Source of the DNA: Selenomonas sp.
Lineage (GTDB): Bacteria; Bacillota; Negativicutes; Selenomonadales; Selenomonadaceae
DNA: 64,000 bases
Assembly: GCA_022482925.1 (NCBI GenBank)
Contig: JAKVOG010000008.1
Location: forward strand, 73,245-137,244
Reading direction: 5' to 3'
Part shown: in pieces, positions 9,706 to 58,673 of the stretch
Layout of the letters: the number at the start of each line of letters is the position of its first letter
Numbering within the stretch: position 1 is the first letter of the stretch
Program-made: the position numbers and the translations under genes
The notes under the pieces: model-generated
Told to the model about the DNA's origin: nothing
Databases searched by the model: none
What the model saw: the letters and a program-made list of their open reading frames with translations, nothing else

Positions 9706-10437
9706 ATGCAGGAAAAAGACAGAACAGCGAAACAGGGGAAAATAAAGGGCTGGTGGCAGCAAATAATGGGACTGCCCTGTATTGGCCGCAGGCTGGCCGG
9801 TATTGTACTGGGGAATCTTCTCATGGGATTTGCGGTTACTCTGCTGCGCATGAGCCATTTCGGTAATGATCCTTTTTCCTGCATGAACCTTGGCTATAGT
9901 ATATTCAGTAATCTCAGCTTTGGCCTTTGTGTGGTTTTATGCAACTGTGTACTTATTCTGTGGGTGATCCTGAAGGATCGCAGCTATATACATATTGGGA
10001 CATTGGTCAACATGTTTCTGCTGGGGGTAATCAGTGATATGTTTTATCTGCTGCTCACGTCATCCTGGGGCAGTCCGGATACCTATGATCTTTCTTTCCG
10101 GTGCATTCTGCTGGCGGCGGGAATCTTGATTTCCTGCTATGGTTGTTCCGCTTATGTTTGTGCCAACCTGGGAATGGGTCCTTATGATGCGATCGGCTGG
10201 ATTGTCGATCGGAGCACGAAGCAGCGTATTACCTTTCGGTACTTCCGCATCGGAATGGATACAATCGCAGCATCTATTGGTTTTATGCTGGGAAGCATTG
10301 TAGGACCGGGAACCATTATCATGGCACTTTTCACAGGGCCGCTGATTTCGTTCTTCAATGAAAAAATCAACATGCGTCTGATCTACGGCCCGAAAGAATC
10401 AAAAAAAGGGCAGTATGCAGTGGATATCTCATCGTAA
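9706..10437 (+). CDS. YczE/YyaS/YitT-like membrane protein
   Basis: Multi-TM; repeated FGNDPF / LGMGPYD and IGTL / VGPGTI motifs. Confidence 0.8.
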   Translation: MQEKDRTAKQGKIKGWWQQIMGLPCIGRRLAGIVLGNLLMGFAVTLLRMSHFGNDPFSCMNLGYSIFSNLSFGLCVVLCNCVLILWVILKDRSYIHIGTLVNMFLLGVISDMFYLLLTSSWGSPDTYDLSFRCILLAAGILISCYGCSAYVCANLGMGPYDAIGWIVDRSTKQRITFRYFRIGMDTIAASIGFMLGSIVGPGTIIMALFTGPLISFFNEKINMRLIYGPKESKKGQYAVDISS

Positions 10438-10510: not shown

Positions 10511-11515
10511 TCAGATTTCTTCGAGAATGATGGCGGACCAGTTTTTCCCCTGGTAGGCATTGTAGCCACGAGTATGGGCATAGCCGGCAATCTTGGTATG
10601 ATTGCTGGCATCTGTTTCCATGGTGTAGCCATAGGTTTCACCTGCAGTTGCTTTTTGGACAGCCGGCATGTGGTTCAGGTTTGTCTTGAGGACATCGTTT
10701 CGGTCTTTCGTTGCGATGACGATGCCTTGCTGGTTTACGATATAGATATGGCCATGCTGACCAATCTTGGCTGAATCGACGATATCATAAATGAAATTCC
10801 AGTTGAACCGGGAGGAAAAGTAGCCTATTGTAGTGCCATTCTCGTCACGTATCGGGCAGGAGTAAGCGATAGTGGGGGTGTTGCCGATGTGTGAGAAATA
10901 CAGATCACTGGCAGAAATGGTCTGTGCGGTGACAACATCCCTGAACCAGCCCCGGTCAGCCATGGACTGTCCTACGGACTGCTGGCTGATGCCGGCAGCG
11001 ACAATGGTTCCGTTGGTATCCAGAACGAAGAGGTCCAGATAGACTTCGTAGATATCGATGAGGTTACGGAGAAATTCAGTTCCCTGCCGGAGCGACTCCG
11101 GATCATCCTGCTGCAGACAGTTGATGACTTTATCGAATTTTGCCCAGGCTTGGGCGTCACAATTGCGCTCAAACAGGTTGCGGTCGATTTTGTCAATGAC
11201 ATCATAGGCCATATCGGCAGTACGGACGCCCATGACTTCGTTGGCCTGATTCACGATGTTTGTAATGATAGTACTGCTGGTTTGAGTTGATTCAAAGCTG
11301 CGTGTAGCCAGTTTTTTGATTTCCTCTGCGACAACGCTGAAGCCTCGGCCACTCTCTCCGGCACGGGCCGCTTCGATGGCAGAGTTCAGTGACAGCAGGT
11401 TGGTCTGCTTGGCGATGTCTTCTATGGAATGAATCACGCTTCCCATATTCTGACTGGCCTTTTTTAGTTCACCTAGCAGGACAGAGGAATCAATCTGTTT
11501 TTGTGTTGCCTTCAT
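10511..11515 (-). CDS. Soluble chemoreceptor-like protein: N-terminal MCP signalling hairpin plus C-terminal Cache-like domain
   Basis: [37 protein letters not shown] lies in residues about 34-70. Then [16 protein letters not shown] and dCache-like motifs ([43 protein letters not shown]). No TM segment. RBS GGAGG precedes ATG 11515. Confidence 0.8.
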
Positions 11516-11564
11516 ACGTATGACCTCCATGTATTTTAGTATCAGCATATCACAAGTCGGAATG

Positions 11565-11652
11565 AAAAAGCCTGGGAAACAAGGGCCGCAGCTGCAGTCC
11601 CTGTTTCCCAGGCTTCTTTGCCTGTCTGTCATATTGTAGATTAATTATAACA
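11565..11652 (-). promoter_or_regulatory. Extended -10 promoter followed by a terminator-like hairpin upstream of the soluble chemoreceptor
   Basis: TGtTATAAT at 11652-11644; long hairpin at 11568-11615 with a U-tract on the minus strand. Confidence 0.55.
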
Positions 11653-11805
11653 TAAGCTGATATTGCAACGCAATGAATTGACAAATCATTTTGAGGAAAA
11701 TAGAGAAGCAGATCAAATCAGTCCGTACGCTTTCGAGAAGCGGTGTCTTTGAACGTTTTCATGCCTGTTTACAACAGATGGTCAGACTGGGGAAAAGCCT
11801 GTCTG

Positions 11806-13359
11806 TCACGGACGCAGCCGATAAAAGGCTGCGCTTTGCTTTGCCAGCAGGAGTTTTCCATCCTTGCTTTGTGGCAGTGCATTGAAGTGATACAGTTCCT
11901 CGGTAAGTGTGAGCTCGCAGGGGAAGCTTTGTGGCTGGTTTGATGGGTTCAGGAGTACAAGGATGGTTTCGTTTTCGCTGCTGCGCAGGTAGGCAAGCGG
12001 ACAGCGTTCCTTTTCGGCATAAAGGAATTTTATGCGTGCGTGGTTCTGCAAGGCCGGATGGGCTTTGCGCAGGGCGATGAGCTGTTTGACTTCATTGAGC
12101 AGGGAGGACTCTTCCTGAAGCTGCTTTTTGACGGTCGGGCGCTCTGACGATCCATCGAGTGGGATGTAGAGCTTTTCGGCAGCTGCTGTACTGAAGCCTG
12201 CATTGACCGAGTCATCCCATTGCATCGGGGAGCGTGAGCCCGTGCGTCCGTAGCCGCCTTCAACAGAGGTGAGACCTTCGACATAGTTCATGCCGAGCTC
12301 GTCGCCATAATAGATGAAAGGTGCACCTGGCATAGATAAAAGGAAGGCAAAGGCAATCCTGAGTGCATCGCCCTGCAGATTATGGGCGAGCCGGTCCATA
12401 TCATGATTGCCGGAAGGGATGCAGATCAGACCGTCGGTACCGGCTTTTTTATAGCTGTCCAGATATTTGGCGACGAAGGCCGAGATATCTCCTTTGCCAC
12501 GAGCGGAAAAGAATGGTTCCGGGCAGCGGAACAGGTCGTTATAATGCGATGGGCCGAAATGCAGCAAAAAGTCCATATGGAAACCGCCCTGCAGGGATTT
12601 ATCCGGTTCACCCCATTCGGAGACCATGGCGGCCGCAGGGAATTCATCATCGAGGAAATGGCGGACGTTCTGCCAGAGCTTGATGGTGCCTTTCCCATCC
12701 GGATCGTTTTTGACCAGAGAGCCTGCCATATCGACACGGAAGCCATCGCAGCCCATCCGGAGCCAGAAACGCATGATATTCTTCAGCTCCTCCAGGGTGG
12801 CTTTCGGTCCTTCGTCCGTCATGGACTGCTGCCATTTCTCTGCCGGATCAGGCTGGTAAAAGCCGTAGTTCAGGGCCGGCTGATGTGAGAAGAAGTTGAC
12901 GGCACAGGAGCCGTCACGCTCGGAGATGCCGCGGATACAGCCCATGCCTGCTGGTTCTTTCCAGACGCTGTCCGTCCAGACGTAGCGGTCGGTAAAGGCA
13001 TTTTTTTCCGCTTTGCAGGATTCGTGGAACCATTTATGCTCACAGGAAGTGTGGCCCGGTACGAGATCGAGCAGCACATGCAGTCCGTTCTTATGGGCCC
13101 GTTCAAACAGCTGCTTCATATCTTCATTGGTACCATAGCGTGGTGCAACCGTATAATAATCGGAAATATCATAGCCGGCATCCTTGAAGGGGGAAGTAAA
13201 GCAGGGATTCAGCCAGATGGCGTTGCAGCCAAGGCTGCAGATATAGTCTAATTTTTGGATAATACCCTGCAGATCGCCAATGCCATCTGCATTGGAATCG
13301 CAAAAGCTTTGCGGGTAAATTTCATAAAAGATTGCCTGATCTAACCAGTTGTTCATCAT
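11806..13359 (-). CDS. GH13 alpha-amylase-family glycosidase
   Basis: FYEIYPQSFCDSNADGIGDL, DLVPGH, DGFRVDMA (nucleophile), VSEW, GNHD, IYYGDELGM. Confidence 0.95.
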   Translation of the reverse strand: MMNNWLDQAIFYEIYPQSFCDSNADGIGDLQGIIQKLDYICSLGCNAIWLNPCFTSPFKDAGYDISDYYTVAPRYGTNEDMKQLFERAHKNGLHVLLDLVPGHTSCEHKWFHESCKAEKNAFTDRYVWTDSVWKEPAGMGCIRGISERDGSCAVNFFSHQPALNYGFYQPDPAEKWQQSMTDEGPKATLEELKNIMRFWLRMGCDGFRVDMAGSLVKNDPDGKGTIKLWQNVRHFLDDEFPAAAMVSEWGEPDKSLQGGFHMDFLLHFGPSHYNDLFRCPEPFFSARGKGDISAFVAKYLDSYKKAGTDGLICIPSGNHDMDRLAHNLQGDALRIAFAFLLSMPGAPFIYYGDELGMNYVEGLTSVEGGYGRTGSRSPMQWDDSVNAGFSTAAAEKLYIPLDGSSERPTVKKQLQEESSLLNEVKQLIALRKAHPALQNHARIKFLYAEKERCPLAYLRSSENETILVLLNPSNQPQSFPCELTLTEELYHFNALPQSKDGKLLLAKQSAAFYRLRP

Positions 13360-13705: not shown

Positions 13706-15421
13706 TTAGAACTGAAATTTACGCAGGGATCCCTGCAGGTCCTGAGCCAATTGGGCGAGGGAGTTGCTGGCCGAGGCGATCTCGCCGGCCGAGGCAGACT
13801 GCTCTTCGGTGGCGGCGGATACGCTCTGCATCTCGTCAGCTACCTGGCCACCACTGGCTTCAATCTGGGCCACTTCCGTTTCAATGCGATGGGCATCATC
13901 AGCAACGGTTTTTATCCCGGCTGCCATGGTAGCGACTTCTTTCGATACTTCATCGACGAATACCCGGATCTGATCGAAGGTCTCGCGCAGGCTATCGACT
14001 GAGGCGGCACCTTCGACAACGGCATTGGTACCATGCTGCATGGAGGTGACGGCGTCATCGGTATCAGTCTGGATGCCGGTGATTAGATCGGCAATCTTCT
14101 GTGCGGCTTCCTGTGACTGTTCGGCCAGTTTGCGGACTTCTTCGGCCACGCCGCGTCCGTGCTCACCAGCCCGGGCTGCCTCGATGGCGGCGTTCAGGGC
14201 CAGCAGGTTGGTCTGGCTCGCGATACCGGAAATCGTCTCGACGATCAGGCCAATTTCCTGAGAACGCTGCCCGAGTTTATCAACAATCTTAGCCGATTCC
14301 CCAACGGTGCTTTCTACGCTGCGGATCTGGGCTACCGATGACTGGATGGCTTTGCTGCCGCTTACGGCCTGGTCAAAAGCTGCCGTAGCATGGGCGGAGA
14401 CCCGATCTGCTTCATCGCGGATGTGATTGACTGCGTCAGCGACCTTGCGGACGGATTCGGTGCTGGTCTGGACACTCTGCTGCTGTCCGGCGACAAGTCC
14501 GGCAGCCGTAGTAACAGACTGGGCAACCTGCTCGGAAGCCTGGGCCGACTGGGTGGAACTGGCGGTAAGCTCTTCTGAGGCCGCGGCGATATGTTCGGTG
14601 GATTCATGCGTATGCTTCATGAGTTGATTGAGATTTGACCGCATTTCGACCAATACATCAGCCATTTCACCGAATTCATCCTTGCGGAAGATCGTACGGG
14701 GGACATCGCAGAAATCGCCATCACGCAGCTTGACGCAAGTCCCAATCATGAAACGCAGCGGCTTGGTGATCTCCTTTGAGATCCAGATGGCGGCAGCAGC
14801 AAGGATAATGAAAGACAGGATTACCTTGATGATCATCGCACGCGAAGCCTCAGCACTGTCAATGTCATTCTGGGTATTCATCTCATCGGCATTCTGCGCT
14901 CCCCGGTCTTTCAATGTACCAATATCATCACGCAATGTAGTAGCACTGGTCTTACCGGTGCTGTTATACAGTGTCAGTGCATCACTGCCCTGACCAGCCT
15001 GCTTCAATTCGATGATCTTCGCCATGTTGCGGACGAAGTCACTGCCTTCCTGATCGATCTTGGTGACCAGGTCTCTGAGAGTAGAGTCAGGAATGTCTTT
15101 TACGGCAAGTTTATAGTCATTCCAGTCTTTTTCATAGGCCTTTTGAAAGTCCTTGTACTGCTGCTGCAGGTCTTTCAGGCGTTCAGGGGTTTCGGCACTC
15201 AAGGCCAGCGAGGCATATAACTGCAGGGAACGCATATCGTACAGAGTATCTCCGAGCATCTGGATGCCATGCAGGTTCTGGCTGTACATGACCGTCATGT
15301 CATCCTGGGCTTTGATGATTGTGCTATAGCCTCCGTGCCCCAGTGTGATCATGGCCAGTACAGCAACAATCACCAGGATCAGCAGCTTGTAGGCTACTTT
15401 GAGATTGTTCATGAAATTCAT
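13706..15421 (-). CDS. Transmembrane methyl-accepting chemotaxis protein (4HB-type sensor, HAMP, signalling domain)
   Basis: TM1 near N-terminus, TM2 near residue 200, HAMP (ITKPL...KDEFGEMA), [25 protein letters not shown]. Confidence 0.95.
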
Positions 15422-50276: not shown

Positions 50277-51644
50277 ATGTCAATACGTGTCAGCAGCAAT
50301 CAGATGGTTGCAAACTACCAGCAGCAGCTGAATGGTGCCAACAGCCGTCAGACGAAGCTGATGGAGCAGGGCGATGGCAGCAAACTGCATCGGCCATCGG
50401 ATGATTCGGTAGCCTATGCGAAATATCTGCGCTATGATATTTCCAGCAATGAGAATACACAGTATCAGAATAACGTCAGTACCGCAGTATCCTGGATGAA
50501 GACCTCGGATGCAGCATTAGTCAATATGACTTCAATCCAGACGACCTTTAAGGAAAAGACGGTTGCTGCGGCTAACTCGACCAATAATACGAGTGATATG
50601 CAGGCAACCGGTAAAGAGATGCTGGCAGAGATCCAGGAAATGGTTTCTTTGGGCAATACGCAGCAGGGAGATCGCTATGTGTTCTCCGGTCAGTCGGATC
50701 TGACGCAGCCGTTCACGATGTCGACGGAGACTGTTGATCGTGGACTGGCAAAGACATTGGATGATACGCAGGCGGCATTCTTCAATACAACGGACAATAA
50801 AGGCAGCATGACACAGATGCTTACGATGACCGGCAGCGATGGCAATACGTACTATCTCAATACGACAAATGGCAAGCTTTATTCGAAAGACTTTGTCGAC
50901 AGTGGCTATAAAGATAAGATAGCTGGCGGACAGACAACGGTTCAGGATGGTGACGAAGTCGGTACGATTTCAGGCTTTGGTACGACCTATAAAGTGTCGG
51001 ACTACTTCCAGAATACAGGGAAAATCAAGACAGGAACGGATGTCACGACTGCAGCCTCGGCAGCTTTAAAGGGCGTGTCCGTGACAACGAAGGATACATC
51101 GGGAACTGCAACAACAAGTACGGTTGATTTTTCCTTTAAGACAATATCGCAGAATATTGTTACCTATAACGGCGATGAGAAACATATCTCGATGGTCAAG
51201 CAGAATGGAGCCGTTGACCCGGCTTCGGATACGGTCAATGTGACCGGTTCGGAGATTTTTGGCAGCGATATCTTTGATAATTCAAGCTCAGGCAACAGCG
51301 TTTCCGGGTCGGCGATGCTCAACAATATGCTGACCGTCTATACGAAAACAAATGCTGCCGATAATACCTGGCTGACTACAGACGGGCAGACGCTGTCAGA
51401 TACGGCCCATTCTACGACGGTCAATATCGAGGGGAAACTGGGCGCACGACAGGCACTGTACACATCGGTATCGACGATGCTGGATAACCAGAGCGAGATC
51501 ATTACCTCGGATATCACGGATGTGAGTTCGACGGATGTCGCAGCCCTGGCAGTAAAGCTCATGCAGGAGCAGACCATCTACAATATGAGCCTGTCGCTCG
51601 GAGCGCGGATCCTGCCGAAGTCCCTGTCAGATTATCTGTCCTGA
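50277..51644 (+). CDS. flgL: Hook-associated protein 3
   Basis: KLHRPSDD, GDRYVFSG, ILPKSLSDYL. Confidence 0.95.
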   Translation: MSIRVSSNQMVANYQQQLNGANSRQTKLMEQGDGSKLHRPSDDSVAYAKYLRYDISSNENTQYQNNVSTAVSWMKTSDAALVNMTSIQTTFKEKTVAAANSTNNTSDMQATGKEMLAEIQEMVSLGNTQQGDRYVFSGQSDLTQPFTMSTETVDRGLAKTLDDTQAAFFNTTDNKGSMTQMLTMTGSDGNTYYLNTTNGKLYSKDFVDSGYKDKIAGGQTTVQDGDEVGTISGFGTTYKVSDYFQNTGKIKTGTDVTTAASAALKGVSVTTKDTSGTATTSTVDFSFKTISQNIVTYNGDEKHISMVKQNGAVDPASDTVNVTGSEIFGSDIFDNSSSGNSVSGSAMLNNMLTVYTKTNAADNTWLTTDGQTLSDTAHSTTVNIEGKLGARQALYTSVSTMLDNQSEIITSDITDVSSTDVAALAVKLMQEQTIYNMSLSLGARILPKSLSDYLS

Positions 51645-56291: not shown

Positions 56292-58673
56292 ATGGCAATG
56301 GTAGTAAAAAACAACATGTCGGCAATCAATACGCTGAACACTCTGAACAAGAACTCGTCCGCTCTTTCCAAGAGCCTGCAGAAAGTATCTTCGGGCATGA
56401 AGATCAACTCCGCAGCTGACGATGCATCCGGCTATGCCATCTCCGAGCGTATGCGTGTGCAGATCCGTTCTCTGGATCAGGCCAACAGCAACACCCAGAA
56501 CGGCAGCAGCATGATGAAGGTCGCTGAGGGCGCAGTCTCCAGCACCGTCGATATCCTGAAGACGCTTAAAGAGAAAGTCATCAATGCATCCAACGATACG
56601 AATACGGATTCGGATCGTCAGACGATCCAGAAGGAACTCGACCAGTCCATCGACCAGATCGATGACAATGCCAATGTTACCTTCAATGGCAAATACCTTG
56701 TGGATGGCTCCAAGAACACGGCAGGCAAGGCAACTTACACGGCTTTGACGAACCAGAGCCTGGCAACGGATACGAATGCCGATACGAAGCTGACGGCACT
56801 CAAATCGCGCAGCGGCGACGGATTGGAACTTGCCTCCACGGATAAGCTCACGGTATCCTATGTGCAGGCTGGCAAGACCTATTCAACGACCTTTGAGGTC
56901 GGCGACAAAACGATGCAGGATATCTTCACGGCCGCTGAGGGTGTCGATACGGGCAGCAGTGTATTCGCAACTTCTTCCAATGACAGCGTCAAGGCAGCTG
57001 GCGGCACGGCTAATGCATCGAATGTGAGCGCTGAGTCGAAGGCAATCGAGTTGCTGAAATCGCAGCTCGCAAATGGAACAGGTGCCGATGCTACGGCTGT
57101 AGCAAAAAGTGCAGCAGGCTCTACTACGGGAGTGGCAGGAGGCAATATCAAAGGCTCTGCTACTCCAGCGGCGGATCTGACATTCAAGTCATATACAGAT
57201 GCAAACGGCGATGCTTATGGTGCTGGCACACTGTATACAGCAGTTATCGATGCGGATAAGACGTTAGGAAAAGCGGAAACGGCAATCGGCTCTTATACCA
57301 GTTCTACGAATACGGGTACTGGTACGGCTGGTACGCTCGGCACGGCTCTGACGAAAGCTGGCATTGCCTGGGATGGTACAGCGGCAACGCTGGAGGCATC
57401 CGATATGGCAGCCAAGCTGGAGACTGCATATGCCGACCCGACCAATGATGGCCTGAAAGAAGCAGTGGCAGCTTATCGCAGCGATGTATCTGACCTGGCG
57501 ACGGCCAAGACTGCAATGACGGATTCCGTTAAAGCCTATGAGACTGCCACCAAACAGCTGACAGCTCTTACGACGAATAAGACAGCAACGGATCAGCAGG
57601 CAACAGCAGATACCTATGCAGGCGCACTGAAGGCGACCATGAATGCCGGTTTGGATACGGCAACTCAGATTGCTTATAGTGATGTTGTGGTTAATGATGA
57701 TGGAACGCTTGGAACTGGCACGACTCATGCCGCAGCTGCTGCGACGGATACGCTTAGGACCGCAGCCAAGGAGGCTTATGCGAAGGCGTTGGATACGGTT
57801 GCCTCGAAGGTCGCATCGGGGGCCATGGCTGCTGGCAAGGCGAAGACAGCACTGCTCAACATCAATGCTGCGTTCATGGGTGGCGCGACTGGTGGAACCC
57901 AGATTAATTCGGCTACCTCTGGTGACAACTATGCAGCCGCGTTAGACACGCTGAAGACGGATAAAGCTGCTGTGACAACTGTAGCCGCAGACCTTAAGAG
58001 TGCGCAGGATAATGTCGTATCCAAATTCAGCGGTCCGGCAGTCCTGACTGGCTCGAATGTCGGCGTGAATGGCGCCGGTGAAGTTGTATCTACTGCCAAC
58101 GGCAACAATGCGATTACGCTTACGGCTAATGCCTCGGGCGTTGGCGGCCAGATCTCTGGCTTCAACATCAGCGTTTCTGATTCGAATGGCAATGTGAAGA
58201 AGTCGGCCAATGCATCGCTGGATGCTTTTGACGAGACAGTCCGTGCCCAGAATGAGTCCGCTGATAATGCCATTGCTTTGCAGGTCGGCTCCAAAGCGAA
58301 CCAGTCCATCAAAGTTGGTCTTACGGATATGCGTTCCGAGGCTCTCGGCCTGAAAGGTGCCGATGGCACGAAACTCAACATCTCGACGCAGACCAAGGCC
58401 AATGCGGCTGTCAATGTCCTTGACAATGCACTGCAGAAGGCACTGGATCAGCAGACCACGATCGGTTCCGTTGAGAGCCGTCTGGAATACACGTCCAGCA
58501 ACTTGACGACGGCCAGCTCGAATGTCCAGTCCTCCGAGTCCACGATTCGCGATGCGGATATGGCCAAGGAAATGACCGAGTACACGAAGAACAACGTACT
58601 CCTGCAGGCTGCACAGTCCATGCTGTCCCAGGCAAACCAGAACAGCTCCAGCGTTCTGAGCCTGCTGAAGTAA
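56292..58673 (+). CDS. fliC: Flagellin, large (793 aa)
   Basis: SSGMKINSAADDASGYAISE; LQVG; ESTIRDADMAKEM; NVLLQAAQSMLSQAN. Confidence 0.98.
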   Translation: MAMVVKNNMSAINTLNTLNKNSSALSKSLQKVSSGMKINSAADDASGYAISERMRVQIRSLDQANSNTQNGSSMMKVAEGAVSSTVDILKTLKEKVINASNDTNTDSDRQTIQKELDQSIDQIDDNANVTFNGKYLVDGSKNTAGKATYTALTNQSLATDTNADTKLTALKSRSGDGLELASTDKLTVSYVQAGKTYSTTFEVGDKTMQDIFTAAEGVDTGSSVFATSSNDSVKAAGGTANASNVSAESKAIELLKSQLANGTGADATAVAKSAAGSTTGVAGGNIKGSATPAADLTFKSYTDANGDAYGAGTLYTAVIDADKTLGKAETAIGSYTSSTNTGTGTAGTLGTALTKAGIAWDGTAATLEASDMAAKLETAYADPTNDGLKEAVAAYRSDVSDLATAKTAMTDSVKAYETATKQLTALTTNKTATDQQATADTYAGALKATMNAGLDTATQIAYSDVVVNDDGTLGTGTTHAAAAATDTLRTAAKEAYAKALDTVASKVASGAMAAGKAKTALLNINAAFMGGATGGTQINSATSGDNYAAALDTLKTDKAAVTTVAADLKSAQDNVVSKFSGPAVLTGSNVGVNGAGEVVSTANGNNAITLTANASGVGGQISGFNISVSDSNGNVKKSANASLDAFDETVRAQNESADNAIALQVGSKANQSIKVGLTDMRSEALGLKGADGTKLNISTQTKANAAVNVLDNALQKALDQQTTIGSVESRLEYTSSNLTTASSNVQSSESTIRDADMAKEMTEYTKNNVLLQAAQSMLSQANQNSSSVLSLLK

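Follow-up and report, generated by a model that had tools for sequence, protein, structure and literature searches.

Locus and gene limits

The window, by which we mean the whole 64,000-nucleotide stretch of Selenomonas sp. DNA that was analysed, contains on its minus strand at 10511..11515 a gene of 334 codons plus stop, identified from the open reading frame list and its translation, which encodes a small chemoreceptor-like protein (the mini-receptor). Its neighbours encode a GH36 alpha-galactosidase, a 243-residue membrane protein, a GH13 glycosidase and a canonical methyl-accepting chemotaxis protein (MCP). The gene for the clearly hydrophobic membrane protein (9706-10437, plus strand), for which Pfam gives nothing at E <= 1e-5, adjoins that of the mini-receptor convergently. 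The canonical MCP, a 571-residue receptor with 4HB_MCP_1 and MCPsignal domains, is likewise encoded on the minus strand (13706-15421), two genes upstream.

The longest minus-strand frame around the gene in the open reading frame list is 10511..11632 (373 residues), and public gene calls at this locus use the upstream ATG to give the 373-residue product (41 member sequences). A Shine-Dalgarno sequence, GGAGG (11524-11528, minus strand), is located 8 nt ahead of the ATG at 11515, and homologues, which are 333-345 residues in length, start at the equivalent methionine. We therefore place the gene at 10511..11515, with a product of 334 residues; these limits agree with those proposed in an earlier reading of the DNA that was made without database searches (termed here the sequence-only reading). 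The 39-residue N-terminal extension of the 373-residue form is rich in Cys and Phe and overlaps the leader hairpin described below, and its hydropathy of 1.25 is insufficient for a transmembrane segment.

The leader (11561..11660, minus strand) comprises a -10-like element, TGTTATAAT (11644-11652, minus strand), and a long, GC-rich stem-loop (about 11565-11615, minus strand) that carries a T-run approximately 45 nt ahead of the start codon, followed by the Shine-Dalgarno sequence and the ATG. This promoter-hairpin-gene layout recurs at L013, L014 and L016, three further loci from Selenomonadaceae, where the stem sequences differ and GCAAaGaaGC is common at the 5' foot. The hairpin, whose loop of more than 8 nt let it escape a mechanical terminator scan, is probably a transcription attenuator, judging from its sequence. 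A permissive Rfam search of 11400-11900 returned only spurious miRNA-type matches on the hairpin and no family; a riboswitch in the leader was considered and rejected, as neither c-di-GMP-I nor any other riboswitch was matched in this interval.

Domain organisation

A Pfam search places two domains above their cut-offs in the mini-receptor. The MCPsignal domain (PF00015) matches residues 7-97 (E 8.4e-29; 101 bits against a cut-off of 34.6) and spans only profile positions 17-108 of 172. It is followed by dCache_1 (PF02743) at residues 144-329 (10529-11086, minus strand; E 2.2e-20; 73.7 bits against a cut-off of 45). Both domains and their inverted order, with the Cache domain C-terminal to the signalling part, had been anticipated by the sequence-only reading. 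The usual context of extracytoplasmic dCache_1 domains, between two transmembrane helices, is not found here, and in NCBIfam the matches, to equivalogs of full-length receptors, are all partial and fall far short of the cut-offs. The protein can accordingly be divided into a minimal MCP signalling hairpin (residues 7-97; 11225..11497, minus strand), defined by Pfam MCPsignal and consisting of an N-arm, a U-turn and a C-arm, and a double-Cache sensor with its stalk helix (residues 98-334; 10514..11224, minus strand), assigned from Pfam, AlphaFold2, Foldseek and VIA-align.

The tip region of canonical receptors binds the kinase and the coupling protein and makes the trimer contacts. A counterpart of the conserved MCP tip, EAARAGE-GRGF, is present at residues 48-59 of the mini-receptor (11339..11374, minus strand), about 47 residues from the N-terminus rather than the 30 or so estimated in the sequence-only reading, a minor slip. 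This motif is identical or nearly identical to that of the canonical MCPs of the same genome and is invariant across 27 homologues. Residues 10-95 align without gaps with six canonical MCPs of the same genome at 46-48% identity, and at the U-turn the core sequence hardly differs from that of these six receptors. Each arm is approximately 7 heptads in length (the two arms together forming residues 6-104); the signalling-domain length classes of Alexander and Zhulin (2007) reportedly range from 24H to 64H, and, judged by length only, none of these described classes fits.

The MCP part therefore has the length of about 90 residues that was originally claimed for it, and the further claim that it is too short for methylation helices is borne out, as it consists of the tip hairpin only. 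A pattern search showed that the methylation consensus is absent from the first 135 residues in 27 of 27 members of the family; the same pattern, run as a positive control on the canonical MCP at 13706..15421, matches two sites flanking the tip. Structure comparison likewise indicates that the hairpin arms are too short to reach positions equivalent to methylation sites. The highest Kyte-Doolittle mean over 19 residues is 1.34 (residues 158-176, in the beta strands of the sensor); no 19-residue segment reaches 1.6, and the five highest-scoring segments include none at the N-terminus. As this peak is low and non-N-terminal, the protein lacks both a transmembrane segment and a signal-peptide-like h-region, again as first read, and it possesses the features that define class IV receptors, namely an MCP signalling domain without a transmembrane region.

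A family signature at residues 108-125 (11141..11194, minus strand) is carried on the helix that extends the C-arm into the Cache stalk. The sequence-only reading had singled out a distinctive linker in this region, and residues 105-125 are indeed almost invariant in the 27 homologues.

Distribution and conservation

Homologues fall into more than 100 clusters at 58-91% identity, which match the mini-receptor in length and in their two Pfam domains, and relatives with 47-89% identity over the full length are represented in 442 species genomes of Bacillota (one genome per species). The nearest relative (89%) is found in a Selenomonas MAG, and others occur in Selenomonadaceae, Pelosinus, Sporomusa and Pectinatus. 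Representatives at 57-65% identity are found in Desulfosporosinus, Desulforamulus, Heliobacterium, Lachnospiraceae and Gracilibacter, and, at 47-53%, in the Bacilli (Aneurinibacillus, Halalkalibacter, Anaerobacillus and Rummeliibacillus). Some genomes encode two copies (Heliobacterium, Heliorestis) and the genome of the window encodes one. Members of the close subfamily (E <= 1e-30) were detected in 10 of 401 genomes sampled from the phylum. Databases routinely annotate these proteins as ‘methyl-accepting chemotaxis protein’. The absence of homologues with this domain order had been named in the sequence-only reading as the mark of a chimera or misassembly; since homologues of identical domain order are abundant, both are ruled out, and the conservation data also refute a split or broken gene.

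Mean column identity among 27 sequences is 72% over the whole length of the protein. A broader alignment of 50 sequences takes in distant relatives at 25-32% identity, which are 330-380 residues long and keep the domain order, their Cache match beginning between residues 93 and 141. Invariant in this alignment are F59, R112, E116, W124, Y159, G169, W190, G231, W239, G317 and W326, and the tip positions conserved in at least 90% of the 50 sequences are N44, E48, G53, G56, G58 and A63. Two cysteines, C119 and C220, never vary within the close subfamily, but the distant relatives do not retain both; loss of the pair makes a family-wide metal or disulfide site unlikely.

A variation on this arrangement is seen in tandem relatives of 680-734 residues (P0122, P0124, P0126 and P0155), found with the sensor half, in which each chain contains two units of a short MCPsignal followed by dCache_1. 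This organisation suggests that the tandem relatives are covalent single-chain dimers, and it fits with a dimeric working unit. P0122 has a degenerate tip motif in each of its units, more markedly in the first than in the second, which suggests that the halves have specialised. The tip motif is visibly degenerate in a few distant members as well as in tandem forms; a canonical tip is thus no precondition for retention of the hairpin.

Predicted fold and dimerisation

Among solved structures there is no full-length relative of the mini-receptor. An AlphaFold2 model built from the 50-sequence alignment has a mean pLDDT of 89.9 and a pTM of 0.79. Residues 6-104 of this model superpose on residues 342-441 of Tsr in the Escherichia coli core signalling unit (Z 11.9, rmsd 1.6 Å over 99 residues, 35% identity), and also on Thermotoga maritima Tm14 and TM1143. 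Tsr 342-441 is the stretch between the glycine-hinge positions, and, since the hairpin of the mini-receptor is equivalent to this stretch, the protein retains the tip subdomain only.

The C-terminal part folds as a Cache sensor in the model, a point that the sequence-only reading had put forward for checking. Residues 90-334 match Vibrio cholerae DctB over 223 residues (VIA-align; Z 21.4, rmsd 3.1 Å) and the other dCache sensors PscC (Z 20.2), KinD (18.6) and PctA (18.5); Foldseek matches, the best at E 8.5e-14, include DctB, PctA, Tlp3 and KinD. One unbroken helix runs from the C-arm into the Cache stalk (DSSP of the model, H10-124), and the chain terminates right behind the last strand with no C-terminal helix. 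Because the chain ends at this strand, the N-terminal stalk helix is the sole covalent path between sensor and tip.

Prediction of a homodimer gave a score of 0.82, compared with 0.00 for the best of three controls. In a benchmark this score was reached by 20 of 30 solved one-chain pairs and 1 of 23 solved single chains, counts that apply only approximately here because an author-built alignment was used. Contacts agree between the dimer runs to at least 60%, with a partner pLDDT of at least 84. Interface residues extend from 10 to 126 with a spacing of 3-4 and include the symmetric pairs 87:87, 94:94, 98:98, 105:105, 109:109, 112:112 and 116:116. This pattern indicates a parallel dimer in which the hairpins form a four-helix bundle, as expected of an MCP tip hairpin, and the stalks form a coiled coil. 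The distinctive linker of the sequence-only reading is, in the predicted dimer, the axial junction between hairpin bundle and stalk coiled coil; C119 is predicted to contact residues 155-157 of the partner chain. The dimer score may be partly owed to the model's memory of, or likeness to, solved MCP four-helix bundles.

Ligand pocket

The amino-acid motif of dCache_1AA sensors comprises Y121, R126, W128, Y144 and D173 in PctA numbering, and the PctA substitutions D173A and D173N abolish binding (PMC8915833). In the HMMER alignment these five positions correspond to Q183, R188, W190, Y206 and R236 of the mini-receptor, and the PctA landmarks W128, Y129 and Y144 are retained as W190, F191 and Y206. 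R188 is variable in the family (R, K, E or A) and W190 is invariant. R236, at the position of the aspartate that serves the amino group in PctA (D173), is invariant in the close subfamily. An amino-acid sensor was thus considered and rejected: the motif is incomplete, with Q183 in place of Y121, and its amino-group Asp is replaced by an invariant Arg. The pocket thus gains a second positive charge, which, with DctB, PscC and KinD among the best fold matches, tentatively suggests by analogy that the ligand may be anionic.

Genome context

The host genome (2.94 Mb, 89% complete) contains approximately 24 MCPsignal matches, three CheW-domain matches, one CheA, one CheR and six flagellin matches. 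As there is one CheA, any chemotactic output of the mini-receptor must pass via it. Two of the six flagellin matches fall in the window itself, as Flagellin_N at 50289-50693 and 56304-56714 (plus strand), in open frames of 457 and 799 residues, so that it also contains genes for the flagellar filament. CheW or CheA was found in 20 of 20 carrier genomes, made up of the window's own genome, nine from the phylum sample and ten from named genera; this is consistent with a role in chemotaxis yet non-discriminating, since CheW occurs in 318 of the 401 sampled genomes of the phylum (79%).

Receptor genes are usually scattered, and unconserved neighbours are typical of them. No che genes adjoin the gene in the window or in look-ups of further loci, and a survey of open reading frames within 4 kb at 80 related loci and the window, with three look-ups, revealed no conserved neighbourhood beyond close kin. 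The neighbour clusters are generic (ABC ATPase, MFS, LysR, hybrid kinases, EamA and other MCPs), another MCP gene being nearby in 6 of these 81 loci, and the remaining conservation is synteny within Desulfosporosinus. In Desulfitobacterium (L007/L008, 3984-7513) the gene lies between amtB-PII and a second PII gene; elsewhere PII-like genes are near in two loci and AmtB in one (L070 and L072, Heliobacterium; L074, Ammoniphilus). A link to nitrogen status is a weak lead that we did not adopt, as it concerns few loci and is absent from the window.

Mode of action and alternatives

The reading that we favour, and consider somewhat better than evenly likely, is that the mini-receptor is a cytoplasmic receptor without methylation-based adaptation, in which the coiled coil of the stalk couples the Cache sensor directly to the kinase-control tip. 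The sequence-only reading had proposed a cytoplasmic metabolite sensor or array modulator, and it stood up to those of its refuting conditions that computation can address. Two chains would pair in parallel, the hairpins forming a four-helix bundle and the stalks an axial coiled coil. The canonical tip would dock on CheW and the single CheA, either alone or in trimers with full-length receptors, and a cytoplasmic small molecule, probably anionic, would bind the distal Cache module. Ligand binding would then shift the stalk helices relative to each other, and this movement would be passed through the C-arm to alter kinase activity. As methylation helices are absent, any adaptation must come from elsewhere, and might be provided by other receptors of the array, by routes of the CheV, CheC or CheD type, or by turnover of the ligand. 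Motile bacteria could in this manner probably direct their movement according to a metabolite inside the cell. The fuller version, in which a cytoplasmic double-Cache drives the tip via its N-terminal stalk, plugs into arrays of full-length receptors and reports a conserved internal, probably anionic metabolite, is plausible, and we would put its chances a little under even. A difficulty for this reading is that the Cache dimer is bulky and sits approximately 70 Å above the tip, where the full-length receptors next to it in a lattice might get in its way.

It is also conceivable, if unlikely, that the protein is a modulator or decoy of the array, its tip competing for CheW/CheA sites or capping free CheA-CheW, so that kinase bias is set by the abundance of the protein or by a metabolite and there is no gradient response of its own. 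A canonical tip without an adaptation region would suit such a role, as would the presence of one copy per genome against some 24 MCP matches, and regulation of the expression level itself is suggested by the terminator-like leader hairpin, which is conserved. Conservation of the whole Cache domain, including W190, F191 and Y206, at 47-65% identity across classes of Bacillota is nevertheless more than one would expect of a mere decoy. This alternative overlaps strongly with the directly coupled cytoplasmic receptor, from which it differs in output logic alone.

We regard it as rather improbable that the mini-receptor is a regulator outside chemotaxis, whose hairpin serves as a scaffold for dimerisation or engages a different partner; a precedent is E. 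coli Tls, which sequesters FlhDC and does not signal to CheA (PMC12623472). Decay of the tip in distant and tandem forms, while R112, E116 and W124 of the stalk remain invariant, would be compatible with this, and so would the lack of adjoining che genes. The latter is commonplace for MCP genes, however, and a subfamily tip that is invariant and near-identical to those of the organism's own receptors would be difficult to account for if the partners were different; the occurrence of CheW or CheA in every carrier examined points in the same direction, within the limit set by the background frequency given above. That the gene is an artefact (the remnant of a broken transmembrane MCP, a chimera created by misassembly or an exported protein whose signal sequence was overlooked) is highly improbable: the database call of 373 residues does bear an odd Cys/Phe-rich N-terminal extension, but this extension overlaps the leader hairpin and is too weakly hydrophobic to span a membrane, the internal ATG is preceded by a Shine-Dalgarno sequence, length and domain order are constant throughout the clusters and species genomes described above, and the upstream gene encodes a GH13 glycosidase with no MCP N-terminus.

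Prevailing models of chemoreceptors are built on long receptors, in which the ligand signal has to pass the membrane, then a HAMP domain and then an adaptation region on its way to the kinase-control tip. If the fuller version of the favoured reading is correct, the mini-receptor represents the smallest natural chemoreceptor design, without membrane, HAMP or methylation module, and its Cache domain signals ‘backwards’ through helix alpha-1, which is undescribed for Cache domains. As a compact soluble system, in which a sensor fold that is well understood is attached to the bare tip, it bears on how much receptor is needed for control of CheA, and it could reveal how Cache domains signal via the stalk helix and how internal metabolic state enters chemotaxis without methylation-based adaptation. 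The occurrence of the family in hundreds of species is relevant, too, to the notion that Cache domains sense outside the cell.

Comparison with known systems

The mini-receptor is composed of known parts in an undescribed arrangement, and belongs to a large family that has so far carried an automatic ‘MCP’ label. A full-text literature search found no description of an architecture combining a short tip with a C-terminal dCache, passing mention being possible, and the same search found no characterised example, in line with the statement to that effect in the sequence-only reading. The Cache superfamily is principally extracellular, with 78% of Cache domains predicted to be so (PMC4822843), and in a survey of C-terminal sensors CZB is by far the most populated family.

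As a caution, E. coli Tls is MCP-like and illustrates that the role of such a protein need not be control of CheA (PMC12623472). It is Trg-like and acts on FlhDC through its N-terminal region (PMC12623472); it has no Cache domain and shares no architecture with the mini-receptor. The double signalling-domain cytoplasmic receptor DosM of Vibrio cholerae resembles the tandem relatives in having two hairpins, whereas the window protein has one; the tandem relatives place a Cache domain after each hairpin and, by analogy, look like a covalent dimer and not an array-spanning scaffold.

Helicobacter pylori TlpD and other class IV receptors are similar in being membrane-free, in having the sensor after the MCP domain and in their presumed cytoplasmic cue. 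TlpD combines a full-length signalling domain with a zinc-binding CZB domain; in the mini-receptor there are only approximately 7 heptads per arm and the sensor is dCache_1. The transmembrane dCache_1 chemoreceptors (Pseudomonas aeruginosa PctA, PctB and PctC, Campylobacter jejuni Tlp3, and those of the Bacillus subtilis McpB and McpC type) and the kinases DctB and KinD share its sensor fold (Z 17-21), consisting of a stalk helix with distal and proximal PAS-like modules, and the tip motif of the canonical dCache_1 chemoreceptors is the same as that found here. In comparison with these receptors the order of the domains is reversed, TM1, TM2, HAMP and the methylation helices are lacking and the sensor is cytoplasmic, and the signal would leave the sensor by the N-terminal stalk helix, in contrast to the C-terminal helix and TM2 of the canonical proteins.

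Further counterparts are the soluble receptor Tm14 of T. maritima and its tip fragments co-crystallised with CheA and CheW (PDB 3G67, 3UR1 and 4JPB). Family profile positions 16-90 match residues 8-82 of a tip fragment of 85-90 residues almost end to end (E 5e-19). Tip fragments of about this size were reportedly sufficient for binding of CheA-P5 and CheW in crystals. The Tm14 fragments are engineered truncations of a full-bundle receptor, whereas the mini-receptor is natural and capped by a sensor.
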